Positions 3,581 through 17,991 of a stretch of 32,000 nucleotides of DNA are shown here, piece by piece. Under the pieces are notes generated by a model. The model saw only the letters and a program-made list of their open reading frames with translations. It had not been told where the DNA came from and did no database searches. Position 1 is the first letter of the stretch; every line of letters begins with the position of its first letter. The position numbers were made by a program, and so were the translations under genes. This DNA is from Candidatus Saganbacteria bacterium (GTDB taxonomy: Bacteria; Margulisbacteria; WOR-1; JAKLHX01), in the NCBI GenBank assembly GCA_026387835.1, contig JAPLKZ010000010.1, positions 296,379 through 328,378 of the forward strand. The letters are read 5' to 3'.

Positions 3581-3635
3581 CCAACAAAGTTCTTTTTTCC
3601 CTTATATTTTTTAGCTCGGTTTTCCGGACTATCTT

Positions 3636-3644
3636 TGCTATAAT
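3636..3644 (+). promoter_or_regulatory. extended -10 promoter element TGcTATAAT, probably the original tRNA-Gln promoter
   Basis: tgctataat at 3636-3644, 9 nt upstream of the duplicated tRNA 5' segment at 3654. No convincing -35 element. Confidence 0.45.
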
Positions 3645-3673
3645 ACTTTTAATTGCCGGATCGGCTAACGGCC

Positions 3674-3705
3674 CGCCCGCAACGCTTCGCGTAGCGATGC
3701 GGGCG
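3674..3705 (+). other. GC-rich hairpin inserted into the duplicated tRNA D-loop fragment
   Basis: cgcccgcaacgct (3674-3686) pairs with agcgatgcgggcg (3693-3705): 13 bp with one A/A mismatch and a tcgcgt loop. It is flanked by the tRNA-derived aacgg and cggtagg. Confidence 0.6.
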
Positions 3706-3726
3706 CGGTAGGACAGGAGCTATAAA

Positions 3727-3969: not shown

Positions 3970-3977
3970 GTCTTTAT

Positions 3978-4048
3978 TGCCGGATCGGCTAACGGTAGGC
4001 CATCGCCCTTTGGAGGCGACTATCCTGGTTCGAGTCCAGGTCCGGCAG
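3978..4048 (+). tRNA. tRNA-Gln (anticodon UUG)
   Basis: Hand-folded cloverleaf. Acceptor stem TGCCGGA/TCCGGCA (U1:A72, discriminator G73). D stem GGCT/GGCC with loop AACGGTA. Anticodon stem TCGCC/GGCGA with loop CTTTGGA, giving anticodon TTG. Variable loop 4 nt. T arm CCTGG-TTCGAGT-CCAGG. CCA is not encoded. Confidence 0.85.
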
Positions 4049-4237
4049 TCCTTCGACTCGGCGTTGCGCGCCTCGCTCAGGACAAGTGCCTCTTTCCGAG
4101 GCGAAGGAAACCGAGCAACGAGCGAAGTTGCGAGCTTTGTCGAGCCACGAAGCGAGGAGTCGAGGTTCTATAACCGCTCGGCGCAAGTTATTCTTTTTAT
4201 CTCGGAATAAATATTGGCACCCTGTCCAATTTTTTCG

Positions 4238-4459
4238 CTAAAGATCTATCCCGATAATCTTCTTTCTATTTTTTTCACCGGACAGTATTTTTATCTGTTT
4301 TTTCTTAATTTTGAAATGCTCCATTAACGCCTCTATCACCGCCTCATTGGCCTTCCCTTCTAACGCCGGAGCATTTACGTAAATCTTTAACTGTTTTTCT
4401 TCCTCGATTATCCTTTGCTTTTTTGCATTGGGAATGACCTTTACATTGATGCGTTTCAT
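4238..4459 (-). CDS. DUF167 (YggU/UPF0235) family protein
   Basis: The pattern VKVIPNAKK...LKIYVNAPALEGKANEAVIEAL...I..G..NRKKII matches the YggU family layout (V.P.A...V.V.APP..GKAN). Confidence 0.7.
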   Translation of the reverse strand: MKRINVKVIPNAKKQRIIEEEKQLKIYVNAPALEGKANEAVIEALMEHFKIKKKQIKILSGEKNRKKIIGIDL

Positions 4460-4483
4460 ATCAATATTGCTGGATATTCATAA

Positions 4484-5110
4484 TCATTTAAGCACTTTAC
4501 CGGTTTCAAGATACCAAAGATAAAGATCGAGCTCTCCAAGGCTCATGTTCATTTTTTTTGCGAGTGATCTAAGGACTTTTTCAACTTCAATATATTTTCC
4601 CTTTGACATTGTCTTGAAGCTTTTTATCATTTTGTGTTCTTTCAGGATATCAACAATATGGAAATCAATTATCGCACAGTTGCAGCGTCCGATATTCCTC
4701 AGAAAATGGCTTGACTCCTTATATCCCAGCCCCTTTATATTCTTTGCAAGCCATTCTCTTACGATTTGATCCTCTGATATTTCATTTAAGATCTTTAAAA
4801 TGACTTTTTTATGTTTCCTTGCCTCCACTACGAACTTTGCCCTTGTATTTGGAAAGCGGTGCCCCAGCTCCTTAAGTCTTTTTGATAATTCTTCCAGTGA
4901 GAGTTTATGAAATCCGCCTTTGATTTTGTTTTGTATCTTTATGCTGCGTTCGGCGTTGAAATTGGCAGTCATGAGACAGAAGCAGAGTTCATTGAAAATT
5001 ACATCAATAGAACTATTACCGGCCGACCCAAACTTTTTCATCCGTTGGTCGATGACCTTTTTTATCGGGGATTTACGGAGAGATCTGATGGAGCTGATTA
5101 GTTTATGCAT
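4484..5110 (-). CDS. ogg: archaeal-type 8-oxoguanine DNA glycosylase/AP lyase (Ogg2, HhH-GPD)
   Basis: Collinear with my recollection of Methanocaldococcus Ogg: ELCFCLMTANFNAE, LGHRFPNTRAKF, NIKGLGYKESSHFLRNIG, AIIDFHI and C-terminal LDLYLWYLETGKVLK. Confidence 0.8.
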   Translation of the reverse strand: MHKLISSIRSLRKSPIKKVIDQRMKKFGSAGNSSIDVIFNELCFCLMTANFNAERSIKIQNKIKGGFHKLSLEELSKRLKELGHRFPNTRAKFVVEARKHKKVILKILNEISEDQIVREWLAKNIKGLGYKESSHFLRNIGRCNCAIIDFHIVDILKEHKMIKSFKTMSKGKYIEVEKVLRSLAKKMNMSLGELDLYLWYLETGKVLK

Positions 5111-5116
5111 TATAGA

Positions 5117-5176
5117 GCTGAAGGCTGAAGAGCTGAAGTTCTGAAGATGTCGTACTTCAGCCTTCAGCTCTTCAGC
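5117..5176 (-). terminator. large intercistronic hairpin built from GCTGAAG heptamers (terminator, attenuator or RNA-stability element between rbr and ogg)
   Basis: gctgaagagctgaag (5124-5138) pairs with cttcagctcttcagc (5162-5176). ctgaag (5141-5146) pairs with cttcag (5155-5160). Loop is atgtcgta. The hairpin lies 9 nt after the rbr stop and 6 nt before the ogg ATG. There is no U-run on the minus strand, so classical termination is uncertain. Confidence 0.5.
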
Positions 5177-5185
5177 ACTTTGTTT

Positions 5186-5767
5186 TCAGTAATTCTCCGC
5201 CAATATTTCGTAATAAGCCTGGGGATGCTTGCAGGCCGGGCATTCTGCCGGAGCTTCAGTACCTTCATGGACATACCCGCAATTGCGGCAGCGCCATTTC
5301 ACCGACTTATCTTTTTTAAATACTTTATTTTCTTTCACGCTTGCAAGGAGTTTTCTGTATCTTTTCTCATGCTGGGCCTCGACTTCCGCGATCTCACGGA
5401 AAGATGTCGCAATATCCTGAAAACCTTCCTGCTCCGCGGTATCCGCCGCTTCTTTGTACAGTTTTGTCCATTCCATATTCTCTCCGGCTGCCGCGCCTTC
5501 AAGATTCTTTGCAGTAGTACCGATCACCCCGGCAGGATATCCCGCGGTTATCACCAGCTCTCCGCCTTCGAGATATTTAAAGAATACTTTTGCGTGTTCT
5601 TTTTCATTTTCGGCCGTTTCAAGGAATATCGCCGATATCTGTTCCAATCCTTCCTTTTTTGCCGCTCCCGCGAAATACGAGTACCTGTTTCTCGCCTGTG
5701 ATTCGCCTGCAAATGATGCTAATAGATTCTTTTCCGTCCTCGTCCCTTTAACTGATTTTGCCATCAT
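5186..5767 (-). CDS. rbr: rubrerythrin
   Basis: N-terminal ferritin-like diiron domain ([22 protein letters not shown]) plus a C-terminal rubredoxin-like CRNCG...CPAC domain. AAGGAG SD upstream. Confidence 0.9.
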
Positions 5768-5779
5768 TTTTCTCCTTTT

Positions 5780-6160
5780 TTAAGATTTCCAGAGTCCGTG
5801 CAGATTGCAGTATTCCCTTGCGGACATCGTCCCGTTTGCCAGTTTAAATACTGCTTCGGGCGTCATGCCCGGCCTTAGGAATTCCCGATAAGATCTGTCT
5901 CCCGCTATTATCTGCACCCATTGTATATAATGCTTGTCCTCCATCGGGTGCGCAATGCTCCCGATCTTTACTTTGATCCCTTCGGACATTTTTTCAATGA
6001 CCGGCACGTGTTTTTCTTTTGAAGCATCAACCGTGTTCTCTACCTGAAGGACCATCGGCTGTCCGCAGCAGACCAACTCTCCTCCTCCGACGAATAATAC
6101 TTCGACTATATTTCCGCAGACGCTGCATTTATAGACTTCCAGCCTGTTTGCTACTGCCAT
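5780..6160 (-). CDS. dfx: desulfoferrodoxin (2Fe superoxide reductase)
   Basis: N-terminal desulforedoxin CSVCGNIVE...CCG and a neelaredoxin domain ([25 protein letters not shown]). AAAGGAG SD. Confidence 0.9.
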
Positions 6161-6180
6161 GTTTTGCTCCTTTCGATTTT

Positions 6181-6678
6181 CTATCCGTGAAATTTTCGTT
6201 GCCCCAGCAATGCATCCAATCCGGCAATCTTTTCTTTAGAACCACCTGCCTTTTTAAAATTATTGACCTGCTTTTCCGCTGATTCTTCCTCTTCAACCTG
6301 TTCTTTGACAAACCATTGGAGGAATTTTTCAGCATCGCTTTCTTTTTCCGACCTCGCCATTTCAACCAGAGCGTTTATCAGTCCGGTGACCATTTTTTCA
6401 TGAGCCAGTGTGTGCTCAAAAGCGGCAAGAGGGCTTTCCCATTGAGACTCCGGAGCCTCGATAGGCAGCATCAGCGCTCTTGATCCTCTGGCGTACAGAT
6501 AATCATATATCTTAGTGGCGTGCACCATCTCTTCCTGAAACTGGACCTTCATCCAGTTCGCGCCTCCCTTCAGGCCGATGGAATCAAAATATGAGGCCAT
6601 TGAAAGATAAAGGTACGCGGAATAGATCTCCCTGTTGACCTGGACATTGAGCGCGCCGGATAACTTGTTGGATATCAC
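6181..6678 (-). CDS. ftn: non-haem ferritin
   Basis: [22 protein letters not shown]....[21 protein letters not shown] matches Ftn-type ferroxidase-centre residues. The GTG start shares one nt with the rubredoxin stop (TAGTG). Confidence 0.85.
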
Positions 6679-6839
6679 TATTTTATTTCCTCAAACTGGT
6701 CTTTGGCCGCCCCGCATACCGGACAGACCCAGCTATCTGGCAGTTTTTCAAACGGTGTGCCTGCCGGCGCTCCGTTATCCGGGTCCCCGCTTGCCGGGTC
6801 ATAAACATAACCGCAGACATTGCATACATATTTTTTCAT
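6678..6839 (-). CDS. rub: rubredoxin (53 aa)
   Basis: Absent from the ORF track (under 60 aa). Hand translation from ATG 6839-6837 gives [53 protein letters not shown]. It has the two CxxCG knuckles and the canonical Y.YDP...F..LP..W.CP.CG core. GGAGGG SD sits 5 nt upstream. Confidence 0.9.
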
Positions 6840-6871
6840 TTATTCCCTCCGACTTGCTGATGATAAGACCA

Positions 6872-7687
6872 TTATAGAACATTTTCGACAAGTTCGATCA
6901 TCGGGTAATTTTCTTTGAACTCTTTATGATTAGTTGCCTTTATTTTTTCGGTTTCATTGGCATGAAGAAGATAATATCTACACTTGTCGGCAAGGCCTTC
7001 ATACGCAAAAGACTTAAAAGACACTTTTTCGTAAGGATTAATATCGGATTCTTCCGCCACGATAAAACATTTGTTGTTCAACAGATAAGATATTCTCGGC
7101 GCTTCAAATATTTTTGCATCATAAAAATGCATGCTCAGGGCGATCCTGGTCCTTGCGATGATTTCATCTCTTTCTTTGCCGTATACCCCGAAAAGCACCT
7201 TGACGTTTATGTTCTTAAGTTCGTCCAGTACTTTTTTTCTTCTTTCGTTGATGCTCCCGTAGAACAGGACATCGATGTCTTTGTTGTTGCCGGCATCCGG
7301 AATTAATTCGAGTTTTTCATGGTAGCCGACTGGCAGATATTTTGCTTTAAGGCCTCTTTCGTTCAACCGCTTAATGTTCTCCAAAGAATAATCCCATATC
7401 TCAAATGCGTTCTCCAAAAGTTTTTTCTGGTTTTCGCTGTCCCAGCCCCCTTCCGCACCTATCTGCTCAAATTGATATGGGATATATTTTATTTCTTTCA
7501 TCCCGTCATTAAATGGGATAAGGTGATAGCCCAAAACAATATTGGTTTTTTCTTTGTTCAGATAGTTTTCTTTTATCTCTGCTGCTATTCCGAGCGAATC
7601 AAAAGAGCTTTTAAGTAGTAATGCTATTTCGTCAAAGCATTTTGCGTGAATATAACCATCCGGATGAATGAGACAGATATTATACAT
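6872..7687 (-). CDS. hypothetical protein with glycosyltransferase-family-1-like C-terminal half (CgeB / Glyco_trans_1_2-like)
   Basis: DIDVLFYGSINERRKKVLDELK...VLFGVYGKERDEIIARTRIALSMHFYDAKIFEAPRISYLLNNKCFIVAEES resembles the GT1-type C-terminal module, by recollection only. Its ATG directly abuts the fprA stop (TAAATG). The gene is AT-rich. Confidence 0.4.
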   Translation of the reverse strand: MYNICLIHPDGYIHAKCFDEIALLLKSSFDSLGIAAEIKENYLNKEKTNIVLGYHLIPFNDGMKEIKYIPYQFEQIGAEGGWDSENQKKLLENAFEIWDYSLENIKRLNERGLKAKYLPVGYHEKLELIPDAGNNKDIDVLFYGSINERRKKVLDELKNINVKVLFGVYGKERDEIIARTRIALSMHFYDAKIFEAPRISYLLNNKCFIVAEESDINPYEKVSFKSFAYEGLADKCRYYLLHANETEKIKATNHKEFKENYPMIELVENVL

Positions 7688-8863
7688 TTATAGTGTTTTA
7701 TGTTTTTCTGCTATATTTTCTGCAAGTTCCTGTATCAGCTTATGATCATTCTCTTTAGGATATCCTTTTATTATTACCGGCTCTATCAGTTCCACTTTCA
7801 AATTAGTCAATTGTCCTGTTATTGTCTCGACAAGCTTGCTGCCCCAGCCGAATGAACCGATAAGTGAAGCAAATCTTGTCTTTGGCCTCAGAGCGTTTGC
7901 GAGATAAGCGGCATAGACCGCCAGCGGATGCGCCTGCGCAAGCACAGCAGGAGCCCCTATTACAACAGTTGCCGCATCTACTAAGGACATTGCAAGTTCT
8001 CCGATATCTGTCTTCGGGATATTGAACGGTTTTACTGTGATGCCCTTTTTAGTCAGCTCGTCCGTTAATATCTCTACCATCTTTTGGACACTGCCGTGCA
8101 TGGAAACATAGGGTATCACGACTTCATTGGCAACTTTGTCCGATATCCAGTCTTTATAAGCTTCGATTATGAACTTAGGGGTCTGATAGACCGGACCATG
8201 GCTTGGACAGATCATGTTAATTTCGTATGAGGCAAGTTTTTCAATATGGCCTTTGATACTCACTCTGAATGGCATCATTATCTCCGCATAATATCTTTTT
8301 GCGCTTTTATATACATCCGCTTCGTTCTCAACAAAAAGGCCTGACTGCGCTCTGTGGGAACCGAGAAAATCGCACGGGAATAATATCTTATCTTCTCTAA
8401 GATATGAAAATATCGTTTCCGGCCAGTGTACCCACGAAGCATGGATGAACTCCAGCGTCTTGTTCCCCAGGGAAATCGTCTCTTTATCTTTTACCGTTAT
8501 TATTCTGTCTTCAGCGGCAAGAGAAAGATCCACAAGCATCCCTTTGCACTTCTCGCTCGAGATGACCTTTGCCTTCGGGAACCATTCAAGTGCATTCGGG
8601 ATCGAACCTGAATGGTCCTGCTCGGCATGATTGCAGATGATATAATCAATATTTTTTATTCCTAAAGATGTCAGATTTTCTTTGAGGGTTGCTGTCTTTG
8701 TTGGATCGACTGTATCAATAAGAACGGTCTTTTCACTGCCCTTGATCAGATAAGAGTTATAGCTCGTGCCGTCGGGAAGCGGTATCAGCTCATCAAAAAG
8801 CCTTCTGTCCCAGTCGACCGCGCCAACCGCGAAGATATCATCTTTTATTTTCTGTGCCGCCAT
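7688..8863 (-). CDS. fprA: flavodiiron protein (A-type flavoprotein, rubredoxin:O2/NO oxidoreductase)
   Basis: N-terminus VGAVDWDRRLFDELIPLPDGTSYNSYLI, a metallo-beta-lactamase-like H.E.DH motif (CNHAEQDHSG) and a C-terminal flavodoxin-like domain. Confidence 0.9.
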   Translation of the reverse strand: MAAQKIKDDIFAVGAVDWDRRLFDELIPLPDGTSYNSYLIKGSEKTVLIDTVDPTKTATLKENLTSLGIKNIDYIICNHAEQDHSGSIPNALEWFPKAKVISSEKCKGMLVDLSLAAEDRIITVKDKETISLGNKTLEFIHASWVHWPETIFSYLREDKILFPCDFLGSHRAQSGLFVENEADVYKSAKRYYAEIMMPFRVSIKGHIEKLASYEINMICPSHGPVYQTPKFIIEAYKDWISDKVANEVVIPYVSMHGSVQKMVEILTDELTKKGITVKPFNIPKTDIGELAMSLVDAATVVIGAPAVLAQAHPLAVYAAYLANALRPKTRFASLIGSFGWGSKLVETITGQLTNLKVELIEPVIIKGYPKENDHKLIQELAENIAEKHKTL

Positions 8864-8875
8864 TATATTGCTCCT

Positions 8876-9808
8876 TTACTTTATACCTAATATTATAAGC
8901 CACACAGGCAGGTATATCACCGAAAGAACTGAAGAAATGATCGTCAGCGTCGCGATCAAACCTTTGTAAAAATCATACCTTTCACTGAACACTATCATTG
9001 ATACCGCGACCGGCATTGCGTTCATGAGCAATGCAATGTTTTTTTCTGGCCCATTAAGGTTGAAATATACGCATGCCGCCAGTGCAACCAGTGGCAGAAT
9101 AATTATTCTGAGAAGGCTCAGCACAAACGCGGCAGGGACGCTTTCAAGTCTTTTGCCGAACATGACCATGCCCAGCATGAACAGGGCCACGGTCGCTGTG
9201 GTGCCGCCAAGCATATGAAGCGTCTGGGAAAGAGGAGAAAACATCCTCACTTTTAAAAGCGCCATGATAAACCCGGCGAAGATGGATATTATAAGAGGGT
9301 TCTTGTAAAATACCGAGATCAGCCTTTTTATTCCGCCCAAAAAGGATATCCGCCCCATTTTATACAGTTCCAGTACCAGCACAGTCAAAATAACGCCCGG
9401 TATCGCGATCGCGGCGACAGACAGGACCGCCAATTTCTCCGCGACCAGCGTTGGGAACGCGAACATAATAAAAGGGATCCCGAAAAATGCCGTGCTCCCG
9501 AAGGCAGTACAGAATATCAGAAGATAGAGAAGTTCCTTTTTGAACCTGAAGATTAAGAATAATAATAAATAGAAGGCGGCAATGATCATTGTCGGCAGAG
9601 CGCAAGCGATCATAAAATTGAGCGTACTCTGGTTAAATTCGGTTTCGGCAATGTTTACGAACAGAAGCGCCGGAAGCGCAAAATAATAAACATAGGAACT
9701 GAAAGATCTGTCATCTTCCTTCTTGAATATCTTAAATGCTTTTGACAGATACCCCAGAAGTATCAGCAAAATTATCGGCAGCAATGTCCTTATGATTATC
9801 TCTGCCAT
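8876..9808 (-). CDS. AEC (auxin efflux carrier) family permease
   Basis: 310 aa with about 10 hydrophobic segments. The N-terminus LLPIILLILLGYLSK...F.......Y.ALPALLF is typical of the AEC membrane-transport family. Confidence 0.7.
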   Translation of the reverse strand: MAEIIIRTLLPIILLILLGYLSKAFKIFKKEDDRSFSSYVYYFALPALLFVNIAETEFNQSTLNFMIACALPTMIIAAFYLLLFLIFRFKKELLYLLIFCTAFGSTAFFGIPFIMFAFPTLVAEKLAVLSVAAIAIPGVILTVLVLELYKMGRISFLGGIKRLISVFYKNPLIISIFAGFIMALLKVRMFSPLSQTLHMLGGTTATVALFMLGMVMFGKRLESVPAAFVLSLLRIIILPLVALAACVYFNLNGPEKNIALLMNAMPVAVSMIVFSERYDFYKGLIATLTIISSVLSVIYLPVWLIILGIK

Positions 9809-9820
9809 AGATTTCCCGTT

Positions 9821-10342
9821 TCAGCTCTTCAGCTCTTCAGCGCTAATATATGTCGGCGCCGTTTTCGGGGATTTTCCTTTTAAATACTCATGATAATAGG
9901 AATATGTCATTGGTTCTTTATCGGATAACACCCTTGAATCTGTGATCTCGCCGATGAATAGCGTATGTGTCCCGACATCAAGAGATTTTACAACCTTTCC
10001 TTCAAGGCTTGCGACGGCAAAATCAAGCACGATAGGAACTTTTGAGGTGCCTGTTTCATATTTTGTATCCTTAAATTTATCGGTATCTCTTCCACTTTTA
10101 AATCCGAACTTCCCGATGAATATCATCGGAGTTTCCTGCGACAGGACCGAGACAGAAAATATTCCGCTTGAAGAGATGAATTCATGTGTCAGGTTCTGTT
10201 TATTTATACAAACCGCTATCTGCACTGGCTCCGACGTCACCTGGAATACCGTGTCGGCTATCTGACCGTTGATGTTGCCGTCTTTAGTCGAACAGACGAC
10301 ATACATGCCGTATGACAATTTACGAAGGGCTGAAGTGTCCAT
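9821..10342 (-). CDS. flavin reductase-like FMN-binding domain protein (likely NAD(P)H:rubredoxin-type reductase module)
   Basis: LSYGMYVVCSTKDG..NGQIADTVFQVTSEP..IAVCINK.N.THE.I..SG.FSVSVL and GTHTLFIGEI match the flavin-reductase-like domain, as found in the N-terminus of Moorella Hrb. No SD. TAAAAT lies 6 nt upstream of the ATG. Confidence 0.75.
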   Translation of the reverse strand: MDTSALRKLSYGMYVVCSTKDGNINGQIADTVFQVTSEPVQIAVCINKQNLTHEFISSSGIFSVSVLSQETPMIFIGKFGFKSGRDTDKFKDTKYETGTSKVPIVLDFAVASLEGKVVKSLDVGTHTLFIGEITDSRVLSDKEPMTYSYYHEYLKGKSPKTAPTYISAEELKS

Positions 10343-10400
10343 GGATATATTTTACTACATAAGATGGCGGCATTGAGTATTAACGGCGGGTTATTTATTT

Positions 10401-10436
10401 CCAACAAAAAGGCCCTGTTTTTTAAGCAGAGCCTTT
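10401..10436 (-). terminator. rho-independent terminator after the isomerase gene
   Basis: The minus-strand RNA aaaggcucug-cuuaaaaaa-cagggccuuu forms a 10-bp stem including one G.U, followed by uuguugg. It lies 56 nt downstream of the stop at 10493. Confidence 0.6.
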
Positions 10437-10492
10437 CGTTTAACTTACGGACACGACAGAGAGGGCAGGTGTAGTCGCGCCCGCGTTGGGAC

Positions 10493-11848
10493 TTAATTTT
10501 CCGTCGCGTCCAGCCCCGCAACGATCTTCTCGAACTTCGCCATCGCCTTTGTGCCTTCCGGAGTACCGGCCCTTCTTATGGCCAAGAGGTACCACTGCAG
10601 CGCAGCGTTGCCTCCGCCCATCTGATCATTTACCGCTTTCATCAGTTTTTCATGCGGATGCCTTCTTGCCTGACTGAATGCAGCTGTCAGCTGAGTATAA
10701 TTGATATCCAGGGCCTCGCTTAATGGCATTCTTAGTGGGTTGATGTCCGGCGTATTCACGCCTTTGTATCCTGCCATCTGAAGCGCCCATGCAATCGGTT
10801 CGATCATATCAAATTCATAAGCCCCTACGTTGTCATCGATATCATAATTTCCTTTCGGCTGACCGTTCCAGTGTATGCAGAACAACCTTGAATCCATCAG
10901 GCAATCCATGAATGCAGCTGGCAGATTTTCAAATCCCATCTGCATGTGTCCGATCTCCGGGGTCATTCCTACCATTCTGATCCCATGATCAAGCAATGCC
11001 CTGTTGGTTGAACTGGTAAGCCTTAATTCAATTGCCCTGGCAAATGTCAGTCCTTTTGCCGTGGAATCCATATGGTTAACGCCTCTTGGCTCATATGGTT
11101 TCGGTTCCTTTGTAGCCTGCTGCCCGGGCACCGCATCCATTGCATCTGCTGTCGCACCGGCTATCATATCCCTGACCCATTTGTAGTTGCAACCGAATGT
11201 ATTTTCTACCCCGTCTATACCATACCAGTGGTTTACGGTCGGGATCCCCAAAAGATCTGCCATCTGGAAAGTTTCAAGCTGCCTTCTTCTGGCAAATTCC
11301 CTTATCGCCTTGTTCGTGTTGGTCAAGGAGCCGTGCTGGAAGATCGCATCAGCAAAAAGGAGAGGAACTATCGAATCCACCCCAATGCCGGTTTTTTGCA
11401 TCATCTCTACCCATTTTACAACGTTTTGAGGACCAAGCTCTCCTGGATAGTGGCACTGCAGGGATATTTTAACGCCGATTTGTTTCTGCATCGCTGCCGT
11501 TCTCTCAAAGATCCACTGAACCCACTGGTCGCTCCCTTTCTCACCGCCGCAGAGTTCCTTTACATCTTCGTATCCGGCATGGAATCTTGTTCCGCTCTTT
11601 GGATAATACCAGACGCCCGCCGAAGCATTAAGCGGGATCTCATGTGTCGACATTAATTTGATCCGATCTTTCCCTGTTAATGCTAAATTAACCGCCTGAT
11701 GCCTTGTATCGATCACCTCTCTGTCCGCTACAAAACGCATCCCCAATCTTTGTCTTAGGGGTGCATTTACTTCTCTTACATTTGCCGGAAGCCCCAATGC
11801 TTTCGCGCTTATTTCTGATGGTGCCGGGATCACTAATTTAACTCCCAT
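10493..11848 (-). CDS. xylose-isomerase-like TIM-barrel sugar isomerase (divergent, substrate unknown)
   Basis: Collinear motif pattern with xylose isomerase: W.G.DG.E, KEPKPYEP (cf. IEPKPQEP), EIGHMQM (cf. NIEANHATLAGH), HWNGQPKGNYDIDDNVG (cf. VDANRGD..LGWDTDQF), AGYKG. AAGGAG SD. Confidence 0.6.
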   Translation of the reverse strand: MGVKLVIPAPSEISAKALGLPANVREVNAPLRQRLGMRFVADREVIDTRHQAVNLALTGKDRIKLMSTHEIPLNASAGVWYYPKSGTRFHAGYEDVKELCGGEKGSDQWVQWIFERTAAMQKQIGVKISLQCHYPGELGPQNVVKWVEMMQKTGIGVDSIVPLLFADAIFQHGSLTNTNKAIREFARRRQLETFQMADLLGIPTVNHWYGIDGVENTFGCNYKWVRDMIAGATADAMDAVPGQQATKEPKPYEPRGVNHMDSTAKGLTFARAIELRLTSSTNRALLDHGIRMVGMTPEIGHMQMGFENLPAAFMDCLMDSRLFCIHWNGQPKGNYDIDDNVGAYEFDMIEPIAWALQMAGYKGVNTPDINPLRMPLSEALDINYTQLTAAFSQARRHPHEKLMKAVNDQMGGGNAALQWYLLAIRRAGTPEGTKAMAKFEKIVAGLDATEN

Positions 11849-11975
11849 TGTTCCTTCTCCTTATTTATAATTTATCTTTCGGGTTTCATATGAAGACCTC
11901 ACAAAAAATCTTTTTATTTTGGATTTGTTCCCTCCTTTTCAATTATTATATCTGCTTCGAAAACTCTACATTCTT

Positions 11976-12003
11976 CTATCGAACGCCTTTTCCGGAAATT
12001 TCA
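11976..12003 (-). promoter_or_regulatory. ECF-sigma-like promoter motif, copy D: TGAAAT-N16-CGATAG (upstream of isomerase)
   Basis: Minus strand reads TGAAATttccggaaaaggcgttCGATAG. It overlaps the stop codon of the mutarotase-like gene and lies 127 nt upstream of the isomerase ATG. Confidence 0.45.
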
Positions 12004-13167
12004 CTTCATTTTTGACAGCAGGTATTTTTCGACCAGAGCCTTCGGGTCATTGACCTGATCTGTCTGTATTGCGTCAATAAAAAGTTTTGCCGGATAAAAT
12101 GTGTTCTTGGGCCTGGCCGTTTCAAATGTATCGATGCCGGACAACTGCGCCAGCGCGACTGACTTTTGTATCCCCAGAGGAAATGGGGTGTTGGACGGCT
12201 CGAGCCCCAACACCTGAGTCCTGGGTATTTTCCCGTCTGTTGACCACGGTGTCGCTGTCTTTGATCTGTTCTCTATCCACCTTGCCAAGAACGGCGCATC
12301 CTCTCTTTTCCATGCTGCCATCATCGCTATTCCGAGCTTCGGGTTGTGAAGAAGGAACCATGCGTATTTCAGGTCCTTGGGAAATACCTGGGCAGTAAAA
12401 TCACTCTGCGACATTATGTTTTCGGCCGGGCTGAACGTCGACAGGTTTATGAGCGCTCCTGTCTTGCACAATCCAAAAGGCCAGACTTCTTCACCGCCTT
12501 CTTTCAGGAACTGGCTTGCGCCTCCGAAATCACCCGGAAAATTATGCACGCTTGTCCCATACGGGAGATAAAGTCTGGATGCGAGAGCGAAAGCGCCGAA
12601 ATTCATGTGTTCCGCCCATGTGATATTCTTATTTTTGTCGTCCTTGTTCTCGCATGATGTGCATATTTCAACAGATGTTCCTCCGGGAACGAACTGGAAT
12701 CTTCTTGCCACGGACCAGCCGGTTATAGGTAGTTCCGCCTGAAGGACCATTGCTGTTTCACCAGAAAGGGACCTGTTTAATGTCCATGGAACAATGTTAG
12801 CTTCGCTGTGCAGTCCACCTGTTTCTTCCATCTTTCCCGGGCCGAATGCCGGAAAGCAGAACGATGAGCCTCCGACTGACGCGCAGCGTTTCCTCACGTC
12901 CCTGCCGCCGTACTCGTCGAAAGCGGGATCGTCCAGCCCGACTTGTTGCGGATCATGCAGTTCCCACGGCGCTTGCCAGAGTATATTTGTCAATTCTCCA
13001 TTCCTGTTAAGGACGCTATAACGTCCGATATTGCCGCCGCCTGCAAAAACGGAAAATTCCATGGCAAGCGCGTTTGAAAGAAACCCTTTCGGTCGGAATG
13101 ATTGTGCCCGGAATCCTATCCTCGCTCTAAATGTATCGCCTGAAGAAAAATCTATCCTATTTCCCAT
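12001..13167 (-). CDS. aldose-1-epimerase (galactose mutarotase)-like fold protein
   Basis: Track ORF 12001..13218. The start is probably ATG 13167 (MGNRIDFSS), which has AAGGAG 5 nt upstream. The all-beta-looking sequence (GGLHSEANIVPW, GLEPSNTPFP) is reminiscent of the mutarotase-like/DUF4432 families. This call is weak. Confidence 0.4.
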   Translation of the reverse strand: MGNRIDFSSGDTFRARIGFRAQSFRPKGFLSNALAMEFSVFAGGGNIGRYSVLNRNGELTNILWQAPWELHDPQQVGLDDPAFDEYGGRDVRKRCASVGGSSFCFPAFGPGKMEETGGLHSEANIVPWTLNRSLSGETAMVLQAELPITGWSVARRFQFVPGGTSVEICTSCENKDDKNKNITWAEHMNFGAFALASRLYLPYGTSVHNFPGDFGGASQFLKEGGEEVWPFGLCKTGALINLSTFSPAENIMSQSDFTAQVFPKDLKYAWFLLHNPKLGIAMMAAWKREDAPFLARWIENRSKTATPWSTDGKIPRTQVLGLEPSNTPFPLGIQKSVALAQLSGIDTFETARPKNTFYPAKLFIDAIQTDQVNDPKALVEKYLLSKMK

Positions 13168-13224
13168 AATTACTCCTTTTCTTTTAATTATTATTGATTT
13201 GAAGCCACCGATTTGCACGATTTC

Positions 13225-14841
13225 CTATTTCGATGCTGCATGGGCTTTTACAAGATCTGCCCACGGTCCTTTGTCGTTCGTCGGACAATAAGTAATATTT
13301 TCCGATCCTTTTTCCAGCATATCCATTACTTGGTCACTTTCATACCCCGAGCCTATGAGCAGGGTCGCGGCATTGCCTATCGGGGCAAGAGCTTGAAAAG
13401 TTGTTGTCACGTTCATCTGTGTTACGTTCGCAAGCGCTTGTAGCATCATACGATCGTTGATCAGGCCGCCTCCCACTATGATCCCGTCCGGTGTCCGGCC
13501 GTATAATTCATTCGTCAACGCCGCGTTCTGCCCAACCGCTTTCCCCATCGCGAGCACCATTCCCAGTACAACGCTTTTAACGATCTCGGCCTGGGTGGTC
13601 GGGGCTTCCTGACCAGTATCTGAACAGAATTGTTTTACCGGGCTGATCACCGGCCCGCCTTGCCTGTATAAGAATTTTGGGCTCATGATATCTATGACCG
13701 CGGCTCCGGTATCAGGGTTATGCACACCTGCAAATAATCTTTTGAACCTGTCAGTCTGGTCTTTCAGGCCAAGTTCCGCCAGCAATGAATCTATCAGCAT
13801 TGTTCCCATCACGTTCATGACGCCAAAAGTCGCCGCTGTCCCGCCTTCAACGCCGATCTTATGTTTGTAAAGGATTTTAATCGTCTCGTCTTCAAGCCCT
13901 ACGGCATCGATAAGCGAGCATACAAGGCTCCAGGTGCCCGTAGATATGAACACATTATTACCGGTGGATAGATATTTCAGCGCGGCCACCGCACCGGCCG
14001 TGTCGTGCAATCCTGCCAGGACGACCTCGGCCTTATCGCATCCCATATCATTTAAGATCTCGGGCCTTACATCGCCCATTGACGTGCCGGTCGGCAGAAT
14101 CATCGGAAAAGCCGATACCGGTATGTCGAGCGTGTCTAAGAGCTGCTGGTTCCATCTAAGGCCGTCCCTTTTTGCACAGTTGAACACCCTGGCAAAGCTT
14201 TCTTCGGTTGCATGAACGCCTGTTAGAAAATGGTTCAGTACGTCCGGGGTCCCAAATATTCTTGCATCAGAAGGGATCTTATGTCCGGAAATTGATATGG
14301 CCGCAAGATGGAATAGATTGTATACTGTCTGCCATCCCTGTCCTGCAGACTGGCTGTGTATCATTTTAAATGCTTTTTCAAGATCACCGCCTGCGATCAT
14401 ATCCGCGATATACTGCGCTCCGGCGCTTTGACCGGGATGCGTGTACATCGTAAGCGGCGTATGGATGCTCCCGTCACCGTTCAAAATTTCAAACCCCGCA
14501 CCAAAAGTATTTACCGCGATCGTCCTCGGAATAGAACGGTCGTATCGCCGGCTCACATCGAAAAGACTTTCACTGAAACCTTTCAGAAGTCCCGCCTTAT
14601 CGATCATATGGTCTGTCACAGTAAAGGGAAATGTCGCGACTCTCTCTTTTTGAACAAAAGAGAGCTGTCCGTCTGCATTGTGGACCTCAACTGTCAGCCA
14701 TCTTCCTGTACCTGAAGCTCCAAGATCTCCGATTATCAACAATCTTTCAGGGCGCTGTTCACCGTGCATTGCTGATGGTGCTGTTTTAGGCAGGACCACG
14801 GGTGCGGTCAGTCTTATATTCCTTATTAACGGTGTTGCCAT
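13225..14841 (-). CDS. FGGY-family carbohydrate kinase (rhamnulokinase/ketose-kinase-like)
   Basis: IGDLGASGTGRW (ASKHA phosphate-1), GLHDTAGAVAAL and ISTGTWSLV (cf. RhaB GHDTASAV / SSGTWSL), GGGLINDRMMLQALAN. AAGGAG SD 8 nt upstream. Confidence 0.75.
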   Translation of the reverse strand: MATPLIRNIRLTAPVVLPKTAPSAMHGEQRPERLLIIGDLGASGTGRWLTVEVHNADGQLSFVQKERVATFPFTVTDHMIDKAGLLKGFSESLFDVSRRYDRSIPRTIAVNTFGAGFEILNGDGSIHTPLTMYTHPGQSAGAQYIADMIAGGDLEKAFKMIHSQSAGQGWQTVYNLFHLAAISISGHKIPSDARIFGTPDVLNHFLTGVHATEESFARVFNCAKRDGLRWNQQLLDTLDIPVSAFPMILPTGTSMGDVRPEILNDMGCDKAEVVLAGLHDTAGAVAALKYLSTGNNVFISTGTWSLVCSLIDAVGLEDETIKILYKHKIGVEGGTAATFGVMNVMGTMLIDSLLAELGLKDQTDRFKRLFAGVHNPDTGAAVIDIMSPKFLYRQGGPVISPVKQFCSDTGQEAPTTQAEIVKSVVLGMVLAMGKAVGQNAALTNELYGRTPDGIIVGGGLINDRMMLQALANVTQMNVTTTFQALAPIGNAATLLIGSGYESDQVMDMLEKGSENITYCPTNDKGPWADLVKAHAASK

Positions 14842-14873
14842 GTTCTTTTCTCCTTTTTGTCATCCACAGGATC

Positions 14874-14901
14874 TTATCGATACGATATTCCCCAAATTTC
14901 A
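14874..14901 (-). promoter_or_regulatory. ECF-sigma-like promoter motif, copy C: TGAAAT-N16-CGATAA (upstream of FGGY kinase)
   Basis: Minus strand reads TGAAATttggggaatatcgtatCGATAA, 32 nt upstream of ATG 14841. Confidence 0.45.
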
Positions 14902-14916
14902 CGCAATTGTTAATTC

Positions 14917-16344
14917 TTACGATTCCGAGATCACTTCATCTGCGCCTGCAGACGGTTTTGCCTCAAAAAATTCGGGCTCATAGATATCCGGATAACCTGC
15001 TTCTCGCTGTTTTTGCACATATGATCGTGCTATCTCTGCTTGCGTCTCCGGGGTCATATGTTCCGGAAGGGCGACTCCTGACAGGAATCCTCCCCCTCCT
15101 CCTCCCATCATCTTCCACGCAAATGAAAACGACTGCTTTTGGAATTCACGCGAACCTTTTATGGCTTCCGCAGTCGCCTGCCTTAAAAGATCAAGGTATA
15201 GCCTTTCCTGAACTTTCCCATCCGCATCTCTGACAAGGGTCGCACTCACCCGGAATTTACCGGTCATTGAAAGCTCATCTCCTTCTTCATTGATCGCTTC
15301 CAGGCATCCCATAATATTATTTGCACGAAGGTTCCGGATAAATCTCAAAACCCTTGCCCTTTCCTGCACGACATAGATCGCCCGCATAAGCATATCCGCC
15401 CTTGCGCGGGCATCATATTTTGAAGAACCTTCTCCCGCAGATTTTGCCGCCCTGTGCATTGCTGCATCAAAGTCTCTTCTTTTTGTCGCTGTCAGACTGA
15501 TGATCTGGTTTTCCGAGTAAGCCGAGACATGCAATCCCTTTCCCGCAGGGACTTTAAATATTGTGGGCAGAAGTCTTCCAAGCCGTTCAAGTTCCCCCCT
15601 GCGTTCCATATAATATGTTCCGCCGAGGCCTCTTGCCACGCCGCTGTTGATGAGGTAAAAACCGTAACCGGCATTTGTCAATGGCGACAGGTCGACTGTT
15701 GTTATCTTTGAAAGATCGCCGAAATTTATTAATATTGCCTTGTTCTTCCCGCTGAATAAAGATGCCATCTGGTCAAGCAGCCCGCATTTTACCCGTACAT
15801 ACGGAGAATGCTCTGCTGCCTGGGCCAGATGGGCGATCTCGGTTTTTGATTTGTTCCAGCCGAATACAGCGTTCAATGCGAGGTTCATCCCCACGCAAAG
15901 CGCGGCCGATGCTGAGGCTCCTTTCCCGATAAGGCCGGCGCTGTTACCACTGATCTGGATCCGCATACCTCCCAAGGGCAGTTTGTTTGAAAGAGCTGTG
16001 CTGAAAATACCGAGCATGTATTTGCCCCATGGATCTGACGGGTTTTTGGGAGCTTCCGGCGGATGTTCCAGGGCAAAAGAAAATTCCGGTTCTTTCATTG
16101 CCGGCGAATGGATCTCCACCTTGTTGGTGCCCGGCGTCGGCGCAACGGCAATAACCGTCCTGAACGGAAGGCCAAATGCTATCGTAAGATTTGTGCCGTC
16201 TCCTTCTATTACGGAATAATCAACATGGTCCCCTATCGGCACCGCCCTCAGGGGCGCGGAAAATATCCTTTGCGGGGGGGTCTTAAACCTTCCCGCGAAT
16301 GTACTCTGGATCTGCCTGAATTCAGCTTTCGGTATAATAAACAT
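14917..16344 (-). CDS. GHMP-family sugar kinase, galactokinase-like
   Basis: APLRAVPIGDHVDYS (cf. GalK signature GR.NLIGEH.DY), GKGASASAALCVG (GHMP motif II), RAIYVVQERARVLRF (cf. RARHVVTEN.RV) and MMGGGGGGF (motif III with an unusual Gly6 run). At 475 aa it is about 90 aa longer than typical GalK. Confidence 0.7.
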   Translation of the reverse strand: MFIIPKAEFRQIQSTFAGRFKTPPQRIFSAPLRAVPIGDHVDYSVIEGDGTNLTIAFGLPFRTVIAVAPTPGTNKVEIHSPAMKEPEFSFALEHPPEAPKNPSDPWGKYMLGIFSTALSNKLPLGGMRIQISGNSAGLIGKGASASAALCVGMNLALNAVFGWNKSKTEIAHLAQAAEHSPYVRVKCGLLDQMASLFSGKNKAILINFGDLSKITTVDLSPLTNAGYGFYLINSGVARGLGGTYYMERRGELERLGRLLPTIFKVPAGKGLHVSAYSENQIISLTATKRRDFDAAMHRAAKSAGEGSSKYDARARADMLMRAIYVVQERARVLRFIRNLRANNIMGCLEAINEEGDELSMTGKFRVSATLVRDADGKVQERLYLDLLRQATAEAIKGSREFQKQSFSFAWKMMGGGGGGFLSGVALPEHMTPETQAEIARSYVQKQREAGYPDIYEPEFFEAKPSAGADEVISES

Positions 16345-16394
16345 TTTGTGCCCTCAGATCTTATCTCGCAAATATACAAAACTATTACAACAAT

Positions 16395-16422
16395 CTATCG
16401 GATGATATTTTGGGAAATTTCA
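16395..16422 (-). promoter_or_regulatory. ECF-sigma-like promoter motif, copy B: TGAAAT-N16-CGATAG (upstream of GHMP kinase)
   Basis: Minus strand reads TGAAATttcccaaaatatcatcCGATAG, 50 nt upstream of ATG 16344. About 75 nt of surrounding sequence is homologous to copy A. Confidence 0.45.
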
Positions 16423-16485
16423 GTGAATTTTTAAATTCTTTTTTCTGGCAAGGTCGGCGGCAAAAGAAAAATATTTTTCTTTTTT

Positions 16486-17460
16486 TTATTGTCTGAATAC
16501 ATATCGGACGACCCCTCCCACCTTTACCTTTTCAGCATCTGTAAGCTGTGCTGTGCCGTCGGTGGTCAACGATGAGCATATCGCGAGAAGATCTAGCGCG
16601 TATTTAAGTCCCGCCACTATTTTTCTTCTTTGCCCTGTCAACGGTATCACCGCTTCGTCTATCCTCAGTTGAAATTTGTTCATGGCCTCCAATGTTGTTG
16701 CCTCGAACAGTCTGTTCGGAAAAGGAAAGACATTCCCCATGGATGCCACGGAAAAGGTCGCCCCTGCCTTTAGCGCTTCTACTATTCTCGTTTCATCTCC
16801 CTGTCCCACTTCCACGAACCTGCTGTAACTTTCTATCCTTTCAAGGTCGCCTGAACTGTCCTTGATAGCGGGGACAATATTTGCTATGGAAGCCATCGTT
16901 TCCGGCAAAACATTCTCCCCTCTTGTGATCCCGGGATTATTATAGAAAAACAAGAAAAGCCCGCTTCCTTTTATTGTTTCATTCAGCCTTTCGGCGTGCC
17001 TGGCAATATCTCTGTTATTCCTGATGTAATATATCGGGGCTGCGACTATCCCTTTAATGTTATTGTGCACATTTGTTTCGGCTTTCCCTGCCGCGGTCCT
17101 CAATCCCGCGACAAAAGCCGCGTTTTCCAGGGTCTCCTCCTCTGAATCACCCGTAACATTCACAAAGACATTCAGGCGGGTACCCGCGCATGCCGAAAAA
17201 CTTCTGATAGTTTCTCTTCTGACCCCGCTCGGAAGGAATCTGAACTCCCCTGTTTCTCCCATTACGAAGATTGATGTACCGCCGATCTCTGTCAAATGCC
17301 TGACCAGACGACCTATCCCTTTGACATCCGGCAATAATCTTCCATCCTCCCTTATTAGCGGTGTTACGACCGGTGTGATATTTTCCCTCGCAAAAAGCGT
17401 TTTTCCTCTATGAACGATTTTTGTTGCCGGCTTTAGCGGTAATGCGTGATTGATGTTCAC
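16486..17460 (-). CDS. DHDPS/N-acetylneuraminate-lyase-family class I (Schiff-base) aldolase
   Basis: VTPL...G......L..L...G...IFVMGETGEF (GTTGE-like), FFYNNPGITRG (YN.P motif) and VPAIKDSSGD (Schiff-base Lys position). GTG start, with AAGGAG 10 nt upstream. Confidence 0.7.
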   Translation of the reverse strand: MNINHALPLKPATKIVHRGKTLFARENITPVVTPLIREDGRLLPDVKGIGRLVRHLTEIGGTSIFVMGETGEFRFLPSGVRRETIRSFSACAGTRLNVFVNVTGDSEEETLENAAFVAGLRTAAGKAETNVHNNIKGIVAAPIYYIRNNRDIARHAERLNETIKGSGLFLFFYNNPGITRGENVLPETMASIANIVPAIKDSSGDLERIESYSRFVEVGQGDETRIVEALKAGATFSVASMGNVFPFPNRLFEATTLEAMNKFQLRIDEAVIPLTGQRRKIVAGLKYALDLLAICSSLTTDGTAQLTDAEKVKVGGVVRYVFRQ

Positions 17461-17499
17461 TGAATTATGGCTCCTTCTTATCAGAACTTTTACAAATAT

Positions 17500-17527
17500 C
17501 TATCGGCGGGTATTTTTTGAAATTTCA
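17500..17527 (-). promoter_or_regulatory. ECF-sigma-like promoter motif, copy A: TGAAAT-N16-CGATAG (upstream of aldolase)
   Basis: Minus strand reads TGAAATttcaaaaaatacccgcCGATAG, 39 nt upstream of GTG 17460. Confidence 0.45.
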
Positions 17528-17568
17528 GCGAATATCAGGGAGACACATAAAAAGGGAGGCTTGGGTCC

Positions 17569-17991
17569 CTATCCTATCTTTAGAAGCCAGACCCCTATCA
17601 CAGCGAGGATGACTCCGAGCAGCTTCAAAAGGCTGAAGGATTCTCCTAGAAGAAAGATGCCAAGTACAAATGTTATAAGAGGGTAACTGCCCGATATTGG
17701 GACGATCCTGGACATTTCTCCCCATTTAAGCGCGTGGTAAAAAAGTATCGTCGCCACAAAACTCGCCAGGAACCCGCCGGTCATGACAAGCAGGGCTGAC
17801 CTGAGGTCGACTGATCTTATTTCCGCCGGCTTTAAAAAGAAAAGTACAAGTATCACCAGACCGATCAAAACGCCGCAGCTCCGGTAAAAAAGCCCGACAA
17901 GGGGTTCTATCTTCCCGAGTCCTATCTTTTCAAGCAGGGGGACAAATCCCCAGATGACGGCCGCCATTATCGCTAACCAGAAAGAGCTCAT
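17569..17991 (-). CDS. small single-domain EamA/DMT-superfamily membrane protein
   Basis: Start taken at ATG 17991 (MSSFWLAIMAAVIWGFVPLLEK). 140 aa with 4-5 TM segments and an EamA-like end (YPLITFVLGIFLLGE....LLGVILAVIGVWLL). The upstream part of the track ORF overlaps the DUF1805 gene. Confidence 0.6.
   Translation of the reverse strand: MSSFWLAIMAAVIWGFVPLLEKIGLGKIEPLVGLFYRSCGVLIGLVILVLFFLKPAEIRSVDLRSALLVMTGGFLASFVATILFYHALKWGEMSRIVPISGSYPLITFVLGIFLLGESFSLLKLLGVILAVIGVWLLKIG

Follow-up and report, generated by a model that had tools for sequence, protein, structure and literature searches.

The systems closest to the locus considered here are the xylA-xylB pair, the rhamnose and fucose operons (RhaM-RhaA/RhaI-RhaB-RhaD and FucU-FucI-FucK-FucA), the Leloir enzymes GalM and GalK together with the long GalK kinases (GALK2/GalNAc kinase, Gal1), and the dihydrodipicolinate synthase (DHDPS)/NAL aldolases (DapA, NanA, KDG aldolase, YagE/YjhH). 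In xylA-xylB, a two-metal isomerase of the xylose isomerase (XI) fold stands beside an FGGY kinase, and in some Firmicutes the xylose mutarotase XylM accompanies the pair. The rhamnose and fucose operons follow the logic mutarotase, isomerase, ketose kinase, with a class II aldolase (RhaD/FucA). Here we analyzed a stretch of 32,000 nt, referred to as the window, from contig JAPLKZ010000010.1 of a Candidatus Saganbacteria metagenome-assembled genome (MAG; GCA_026387835.1). Candidatus Saganbacteria are an uncultured sister lineage of Cyanobacteria, and the window proteins are annotated in the MAG only as hypothetical or at family level. A first-pass annotation had proposed that five co-oriented minus-strand genes in the window form a carbohydrate module, and five such open reading frames (ORFs) were called. 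They encode a DHDPS/NAL-family protein (DHDPS-like), a GalK-like GHMP kinase (GHMP), an FGGY carbohydrate kinase (FGGY), a mutarotase-like protein (MUT), and an XI-like TIM barrel (ISO).

With moderate confidence, we interpret these genes as a native, lineage-specific, modular sugar-utilization locus of Candidatus Saganbacteria rather than a fixed five-step pathway. Direct support comes from the existence and family membership of the genes, the retention of catalytic residues, their variable co-occurrence in relatives, synteny, and the lack of a compositional break. The earlier statement that the enzyme combination matches no textbook pathway agrees with our results. No curated ortholog model is reached, and the NCBIfam equivalog scores all fall short of their cut-offs by a factor of 4-10. 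In full-text literature searches, no paper described this enzyme combination. The literature searched contained nothing on Saganbacteria sugar metabolism, and sugars are not a topic of the Saganbacteria genome paper.

Related loci were added by a genome scan of GTDB with the ISO alignment, which returned mostly ordinary XIs, and by a metagenome scan with the GHMP alignment, which returned mostly ordinary GalKs; these scans contributed only a few close loci. The related contigs are mostly short, and the flanks inspected spanned about 10 kb per side at most and often much less. Although the five genes had been taken as one unit, the full set does not co-occur in the related loci, which carry only subsets (Table 1), so the proposal fails on its own terms. 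GHMP and an isomerase occur without FGGY in L005, L094, and L095, and FGGY, MUT, and an isomerase occur without GHMP in L176 and the P0130 contig. FGGY orthologs with 39-50% identity lie near the isomerase in L008, L014, L174, L176, and the P0130 contig. The isomerase slot itself holds either the class-I-like ISO or XylA2, a class II XI homolog of 528-537 aa that retains the canonical XI motifs and reaches 350 and 240 bits on TIGR02630. Since either XI class can fill this slot, GHMP, FGGY, and MUT appear functionally tied to XI-type activity. In L174, the FGGY ortholog is split into two ORFs of 245 and 281 aa, a probable frameshift or pseudogene, which is a further sign that the module is dispensable.

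Two smaller proteins recur in the related loci. Orthologs of the half-size EamA protein (54-60% identity) sit beside the cluster in L008, L014, and L174. The window protein has only weak NCBIfam matches, to DMT/SMR/ArnF models, and is possibly a transporter accompanying GHMP-type clusters. A protein of 266-267 aa follows the isomerase in GHMP-type loci; it has no match in Pfam, NCBIfam, or PDB, and its gene is absent from the window.

ISO was predicted to be a xylose-isomerase-like TIM barrel, and this is borne out by matches to PF01261 (29.4 bits) and TIGR02631 (75.4 bits, against an equivalog cut-off of 447) and by the XI fold of its AlphaFold2 (AF2) model. The model (pLDDT 91.4) contains both the barrel and the C-terminal helical tail of class I XIs, and in a Foldseek search of PDB all of the top 50 matches were class I xylose/glucose isomerases, with TM(target) of 0.66-0.71 and approximately 20% identity. 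The N-terminus carries about 70 extra residues. Comparison of the ISO and XylA2 N-terminal extensions gave no significant similarity, so a shared module is unsupported. The label "very divergent" holds with respect to the solved class I XIs, but ISO is 37-40% identical to a large clade of XI-like proteins of about 385 aa from Planctomycetota, Brocadiaceae, Rhodothermales, Anaerolineae, Bathyarchaeia, Brockarchaeota, and others. Roughly ten closer relatives share 53-61% identity. In the numbering of S. rubiginosus XI, with residue identities agreeing at all 19 positions, ISO and the whole clade keep XI H54, W137, E181, K183, E217, H220, D255, D257, and D287. The departures in ISO are D245 to H326, K289 to N370, D57 to Gly, and T90 to Val. 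The class I XI metal-ligand set is incomplete in ISO, with the metal-1 ligand D245 replaced by His. This His, as well as the Asn at K289, is common to the whole clade, and a His at the Asp245 position is the arrangement in L-rhamnose isomerases.

The clade members score 79-99 bits on the same XI model. In 29 of 78 loci (L016-L093), however low these scores, their genes adjoin one for a true XylB, which reaches 578.6 bits against a cut-off of 380; an example from L078 is given in Table 1. This clade may represent an unrecognized third class of xylose isomerase. ISO, a branch of this clade, for which we found no characterized member, probably isomerizes xylose-type aldoses. Elsewhere, ISO homologs with 53% identity, of 667 aa in L006/L007 and 553 aa in L010, carry a C-terminal phosphopantetheine-binding domain resembling acyl carrier protein (ACP). 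The next gene in L010 likewise encodes a phosphopantetheine-binding protein, and such an isomerase-carrier fusion is unusual.

FGGY matches PF00370 (42.4 bits) and PF02782 (32.3 bits) above both cut-offs, in agreement with its assignment as a ketose-kinase-like enzyme, and the RhaB-like motifs HDTAGAV and STGTWS are present at residues 279-285 and 300-305. Among NCBIfam models, it scores best on TIGR02627, rhamnulokinase, with 98.6 bits against a cut-off of 528, compared with 44 bits on XylB (cut-off 380) and 34.6 on fuculokinase (cut-off 471), and all of the Saganbacteria orthologs also score best on rhamnulokinase. The best PDB match is the S. pneumoniae L-fuculose kinase FucK (4C23), with 79 bits over residues 38-500. 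By analogy with this kinase clade, FGGY is probably a ketose kinase acting at C1. The locus therefore resembles the rhamnose and fucose operons in its mutarotase-isomerase-kinase logic and in the affinities of its kinase. Unlike those operons, the window contains no class II aldolase and no FucI, FGGY falls below the rhamnulokinase and fuculokinase equivalog cut-offs, MUT is large and aldose-1-epimerase-like rather than similar to RhaM or FucU, and ISO is structurally nearest to XI. The comparison with xylA-xylB is similarly mixed. Shared features are a two-metal isomerase of the XI fold with a neighboring FGGY kinase and mutarotase-like protein, the ability of a class II XI homolog to fill the isomerase slot, and the proximity of true XylB to the wider clade of ISO. 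In contrast, the kinase here is RhaB/FucK-like, ISO has the His and Asn substitutions and the low XI score described above, and the Saganbacteria locus adds a GalK-like kinase and a DHDPS-like gene.

The description of the 388-aa MUT as mutarotase-like is tentatively upheld by sub-threshold matches to DUF4432 and Aldose_epim, which would make it a distant member of the galactose-mutarotase-like superfamily. In the window protein, the DUF4432 match is weak at 21.5 bits. Across the family, collinear matches below the gathering threshold are found to DUF4432 in six of six members (best 1.7e-5) and to Aldose_epim in five of six (best 3.5e-5), with best scores of 24.2 against a cut-off of 32.5 bits for PF01263 and 23.8 against 27 bits for PF14486. 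Sequence and profile searches of PDB returned no match for MUT. Among 5.8 billion proteins, only five relatives were found, at 46-53% identity, for a family of six in all. The ATG start at 13167 agrees with the N-termini of the homologs and with an upstream AAAGGAG. The family has the invariant motifs GGLHxEAN, WAEHMNFG, and GLEP, which we infer could be compatible with the His/His/Glu set of mutarotases.

The second kinase, GHMP, has a GHMP_kinases_N match of 42 bits and keeps GalK-type residues, as expected for a GalK-like kinase. At 475 aa, it is indeed about 90 residues longer than GalK (~385 aa) and close to the 478-aa GalNAc kinase chain 2A2C. Residues R33, H40, D42, D191, and Y245 align with sugar-binding or catalytic residues of GalK; the position of GalK Glu43 is Asp39 in the window protein only and Glu in its relatives. 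By alignment, GHMP has the galactose-binding signature, motif II, the catalytic Asp, and the Arg of GalK. It thus shares with the Leloir and long GalK kinases the fold motifs, the Arg/Glu(Asp)/His/Asp signature, and the catalytic Asp and Tyr, and it is likewise paired with a mutarotase-like protein. Conversely, the canonical GalK motif III, GGGFGG or GAGFGG, is absent, and the Gly6 motif noted previously is confirmed in its place as MMGGGGGG (residues 412-419). This motif is found in the whole subfamily, which we call G6 and which is separated from GalK by IGEHVDY instead of EHTDY and by GLLDQ/GYLDQ. The GalK Pfam signature reaches 22.3 bits in GHMP, just under its cut-off of 23.1, and 42-45 bits in the relatives, and the best NCBIfam score, 101.5 bits, is below the galactokinase equivalog cut-off of 443. 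The window and the relatives' flanks examined contain neither galT nor galE, and the constant neighbor of GHMP is instead an XI-type isomerase.

Relatives of GHMP are few. A word-index search found only three, at 41-43% identity, and when 1.84 billion representatives were scanned in full with HMMER, approximately seven stand-alone, full-length relatives (counted as 50%-identity representatives) were recovered. The next-best matches were domains in giant multi-enzyme proteins, and ordinary GalKs scored at most 165 bits. The giant proteins (P0141-P0152, 855-7248 aa) are bacterial-looking and combine the G6 domain with hexokinase, PfkB, aldose 1-epimerase, GH15 glucoamylase, and NDK. The gene for one of them, P0147, lies on L096 directly upstream of a bacterial rRNA operon whose 23S is 3352 nt, compared with 2925 nt for the model. 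Fusions to aldose 1-epimerase, hexokinase, PfkB, and GH15 fit the handling of free aldoses together with a mutarotase, and the sequence evidence points to GHMP as an anomeric kinase on free aldoses alongside a mutarotase.

The DHDPS-like protein, named in NCBI "dihydrodipicolinate synthase family protein", matches PF00701 with 49.3 bits (cut-off 22.1), which upholds its earlier placement among the DHDPS/NAL-family class I aldolases. In an alignment with three solved DHDPS chains, its K200 (motif AIKDSSG) falls on the Lys of their KDSS/KEAS/KDAT motif, presumed here to be the Schiff-base lysine, and its Y173 (motif FYNNPGIT) on their catalytic Tyr. An identity as DapA was rejected. In DapA, Arg138 binds aspartate-semialdehyde, and the DHDPS-like protein has Ile at this position, GETGE rather than GTTGE, and only 47.8 bits on TIGR00674 compared with 206. 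The archaeal KD(P)G aldolase model likewise gives 36.7 bits against a cut-off of 390. The gene was seen only in contigs identical or nearly identical to the window and is absent from all related loci examined, although no homolog search was aimed at it. The first-pass annotation had suggested that this enzyme replaces the class II aldolase of a rhamnose/fucose-type pathway. This idea has no co-occurrence support and is chemically awkward. Known DHDPS/NAL enzymes use pyruvate and (4-hydroxy-)2-oxo acids, not ketose (1-)phosphates, and the cluster has no dehydrogenase or dehydratase able to make a 2-keto-3-deoxy acid, so a role as the pathway aldolase is unsupported. Judged by its sequence, the protein is a DHDPS/NAL enzyme for some 2-oxo acid and a local addition to the locus.

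From these assignments, we infer a scheme for the order of the reactions, the site of phosphorylation, the arrangement of branches, and the substrate. The core would consist of ISO, as an XI-type metal-dependent aldose-ketose isomerase, and the RhaB/FucK-type FGGY, which would phosphorylate the resulting 2-ketose, probably at C1. MUT would supply the anomer needed by the isomerase, the anomeric kinase, or both. GHMP would form a parallel branch that traps an aldose as its 1-phosphate with galactose-type hydroxyl recognition kept, serving nucleotide-sugar salvage or a second sugar rather than phosphorylating the same intermediate twice. The half-size EamA protein could be an associated membrane component. 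The DHDPS-like enzyme would act on a pyruvate-derived 2-oxo acid, with a ketose-phosphate aldolase, if needed, encoded elsewhere. Since a bona fide-looking class II XI homolog can occupy the isomerase slot, the most parsimonious choice of substrate is D-xylose or D-glucose-like aldoses; a 6-deoxyhexose, suggested by the kinase clade, is the alternative. We reach the same conclusion as before that the substrate cannot be read from the sequence itself.

Whether the genes share a substrate at all deserves consideration. They could be neighbors through catabolic clustering, forming an island of independent and essentially classical functions in which MUT, ISO, and FGGY are a xylose- or rhamnose-type route, GHMP is a very divergent galactokinase serving Leloir-type entry, with galT and galE elsewhere, and the DHDPS-like protein is an unrelated 2-oxo-acid aldolase. 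Consistent with this, GHMP keeps all GalK sugar-binding and catalytic residues, the fusions of GalK-like and aldose-1-epimerase domains echo GalK/GalM, the modules separate in relatives, the intergenic gaps of 57-152 nt would allow separate promoters, and the XI-like clade is linked to XylB elsewhere. However, GHMP stands beside an XI-type isomerase of varying class in the window, L005, L008/L014, L094/L095, and L174, which exceeds the expectation for unrelated genes. Further points against it are the lack of galT and galE in the window and the flanks examined and the preference of FGGY for the rhamnulokinase over the XylB model, and we consider this explanation somewhat unlikely. At the other extreme, the genes could form one new linear pathway, from mutarotase to isomerase to ketose kinase, with GHMP adding a second phosphate, and then cleavage by the DHDPS-family enzyme. 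The five genes are adjacent and co-oriented, with a ribosome-binding site before each and a terminator after the last, the presumed Schiff-base Lys and the catalytic Tyr are kept in the DHDPS-like protein, and the window offers no class II aldolase for the cleavage. Against it are the absence of the DHDPS-like gene from every related locus examined, the reaction chemistry of its known family members, and the missing dehydrogenase and dehydratase. Two kinases in one cassette had been thought to indicate either two entry substrates or a doubly phosphorylated intermediate. Two entry substrates or branches fit better, and the doubly phosphorylated intermediate is disfavored, since in relatives either kinase can be found without its counterpart. 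Overall, a linear pathway seems quite improbable.

Horizontal acquisition of the block, as a genomic island with a foreign carbohydrate cassette, would fit the earlier claim that the block is compositionally distinct, but this claim was not borne out. It relied on GC counts of three 60-nt spots, which are numerically right (0.60, 0.35, and 0.417) but unrepresentative of the block, and the only other point for an island is the terminator at one boundary. The GC content of the five-gene block is 48.6%, and the remainder of the window has 46.5%. For the individual genes, GC is 0.478-0.504, equal to that of AckA, PFK, and enolase, and GC at third codon positions is inside the range of other and housekeeping genes in the window. 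Tetranucleotide distances of the block windows are 0.0126-0.0167, within about 1.7 standard deviations of the window-wide mean of 0.0147 (standard deviation 0.0012). No mobile-element genes were seen. In addition, the closest relatives of ISO, GHMP, MUT, and FGGY are found in loci with the same synteny, in which the sugar genes sit directly upstream of a conserved FlavRed-MemTrans-flavodiiron-rubredoxin/rubrerythrin block. As the locus is syntenic in several Saganbacteria, it is native rather than acquired, and an island seems most improbable. Identity to the relatives is 64-72% for the housekeeping neighbors and 37-61% for the sugar genes, in keeping with a native, fast-evolving locus.

Table 1. 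Features of the window and gene orders and selected features of related loci.
Locus	Feature or gene order	Position (nt)	Strand	Basis
Window	Gene order EamA-DHDPS-GHMP-FGGY-MUT-ISO			
Window	DHDPS-like (DHDPS/NAL-family class I, Schiff-base aldolase-like), 324 aa	16486-17460	-	ORF, PF00701
Window	GHMP (long GalK-like anomeric sugar kinase, putative; G6 subfamily), 475 aa	14917-16344	-	ORF, Pfam/NCBIfam
Window	FGGY carbohydrate kinase, RhaB/FucK type, 538 aa	13225-14841	-	ORF, Pfam/NCBIfam/PDB
Window	MUT (mutarotase-like), 388 aa from ATG	12001-13167	-	ORF, weak Pfam matches
Window	ISO (xylose-isomerase-like, class-I-type TIM barrel), 451 aa	10493-11848	-	Pfam/NCBIfam, AF2 model
Window	EamA/DMT membrane protein, half-size, 132 aa	17569-17967	-	PF00892, 66.9 bits
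Window	Terminator-like hairpin and U-tract, 3' of ISO gene	~10401-10436	-	Sequence reading, centroid fold
Window	Weak terminator-like hairpin, right after EamA stop, upstream of DHDPS-like gene	17553-17570	-	Consensus scan
Window	Oxygen-detoxification block	5186-10342		
Window	tRNA gene	3978-4048		Rfam
Window	NagB-like gene, then sugar nucleotidyltransferase-like gene	1683-3580		
Window	Tandem paralogs	24733-25473 and 25538-26224		
L008/L009/L014	FGGY-GHMP-ISO-unk267-EamA			
L008	266-267-aa protein	11431-12234		
L014	266-267-aa protein	11428-12228		
L174	FGGY(split)-GHMP-XylA2-unk266-EamA			
L174	266-267-aa protein	10292-11092		
L174	Split FGGY ortholog	5422-7010		
L094	GHMP-XylA2-unk267			
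L094	266-267-aa protein	3394-3711		
L095	GHMP-XylA2			
L176	FGGY-MUT-glutamate dehydrogenase-ISO			
P0130 contig	AckA-FGGY-MUT-XylA2			
L005	CBAH-GHMP-ISO-HlyIII			
L015	ISO alone, contig end			
L006/L007/L010	ISO alone, fused to ACP-like domain			
L006/L007	ISO homolog with ACP-like domain	10001-12004		
L010	ISO homolog with ACP-like domain	10001-11662		
L010	Phosphopantetheine-binding protein	11663-12763		
L011-L013	MUT alone			
L078	XI-like clade gene	2291-3406		
L078	XylB	3970-5502		
L096	Giant-protein gene P0147	3449-7207		

All five genes have a Shine-Dalgarno-like sequence ahead of the start codon. Given the gaps between them, the genes are not a tightly packed operon. Downstream of ISO, the hairpin consists of GGCUCUG, a 9-nt loop, and CAGGGCC, followed by UUUUUGUU (minus strand), and it is present in the centroid fold. 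The consensus terminator scan, with a loop limit of 8 nt, did not report it. The site had been described as a clean terminator; the hairpin and U-tract can be read there, but the fold z-score of the 81-nt stretch containing them is only -0.78, so a terminator is plausible and not proven. The hairpin after the EamA gene has a 5-bp stem, an 8-nt loop, and a T-run, and it is only suggestive because such sites in the region do not exceed the shuffled expectation. An Rfam scan of the window found no riboswitch in the sugar locus, and its sole match was a tRNA gene.

Several other genes in the window are of note. The conserved Saganbacteria oxygen-detoxification block downstream of the sugar genes, which served as the synteny anchor, encodes a flavin reductase, a Mem_trans/AEC transporter, a flavodiiron protein, a 271-aa unknown, rubredoxin, ferritin, desulfoferrodoxin, and rubrerythrin. 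Toward the start of the window, a NagB-like glucosamine-6-phosphate deaminase gene is followed by a sugar nucleotidyltransferase-like gene with NTP_transf_4 and hexapeptide-repeat domains, and the syntenic gene in L008 encodes a 649-aa fusion of Glucosamine_iso and PIG-L deacetylase. A pair of tandem paralogs shares 53% identity; in both, the N-terminus is hydrophobic and resembles a signal peptide, and the last residues read ...RL(S/A)FF. Visual inspection suggests that these proteins may be small beta-barrels of the outer membrane.

Several points weigh against interpreting the genes as a modular sugar-utilization locus. Since all of the enzymes fall short of the curated ortholog cut-offs, their specificities are extrapolations throughout. 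The MUT family assignment rests on sub-threshold Pfam matches; hhalign comparison of MUT with three Aldose_epim domains was not significant, and its AF2 model, built from a 6-sequence alignment, has a pLDDT of only 40.6 and is unusable. The combination of a RhaB/FucK-type kinase with an XI-type isomerase departs from the classical xylA-xylB pairing, and the window has no ketose-1-phosphate aldolase. The L005 arrangement, with GHMP and the isomerase but without FGGY, is hard to rationalize if the isomerase feeds only FGGY. Co-transcription across the intergenic gaps is unproven. The related loci number only a dozen or so and come from one lineage, and because the flanks are short, a gene scored as absent is absent from the neighborhood, not from the genome.

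In terms of novelty, nothing here is categorically new, as all of the proteins belong to known superfamilies and the mutarotase/isomerase/kinase logic is classical. The new element is that, in a phylum that has hardly been studied, XI-type isomerases are paired with kinases other than XylB and with a distinct GalK-like subfamily. A bolder possibility, which we regard as improbable, is that the G6 kinases have a new anomeric specificity coupled to XI-type isomerases, such as a D-xylose or D-glucose 1-kinase, and/or that FGGY makes a ketopentose 1-phosphate such as D-xylulose-1-phosphate. To our knowledge, the xylulose-1-phosphate route exists only as an engineered pathway. If FGGY did make this product, Saganbacteria would have a natural version of the route, with the 267-aa protein or the DHDPS-like enzyme handling the cleavage products. 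The occurrence of the G6 domain in the giant multi-enzyme proteins likewise hints at an unrecognized channeling of free aldoses. Adjacency in one genome suggested a five-step pathway, and comparison with relatives shows a modular locus. The analysis also identified three groups for which we found no characterized member: the XI-like clade with His at metal site 1, which is linked to xylB and spread over many phyla, the Gly6 kinases, and the six-member mutarotase-like family. New substrate specificities could be present in any of these groups and would then be relevant to the biocatalysis of pentoses and hexoses.

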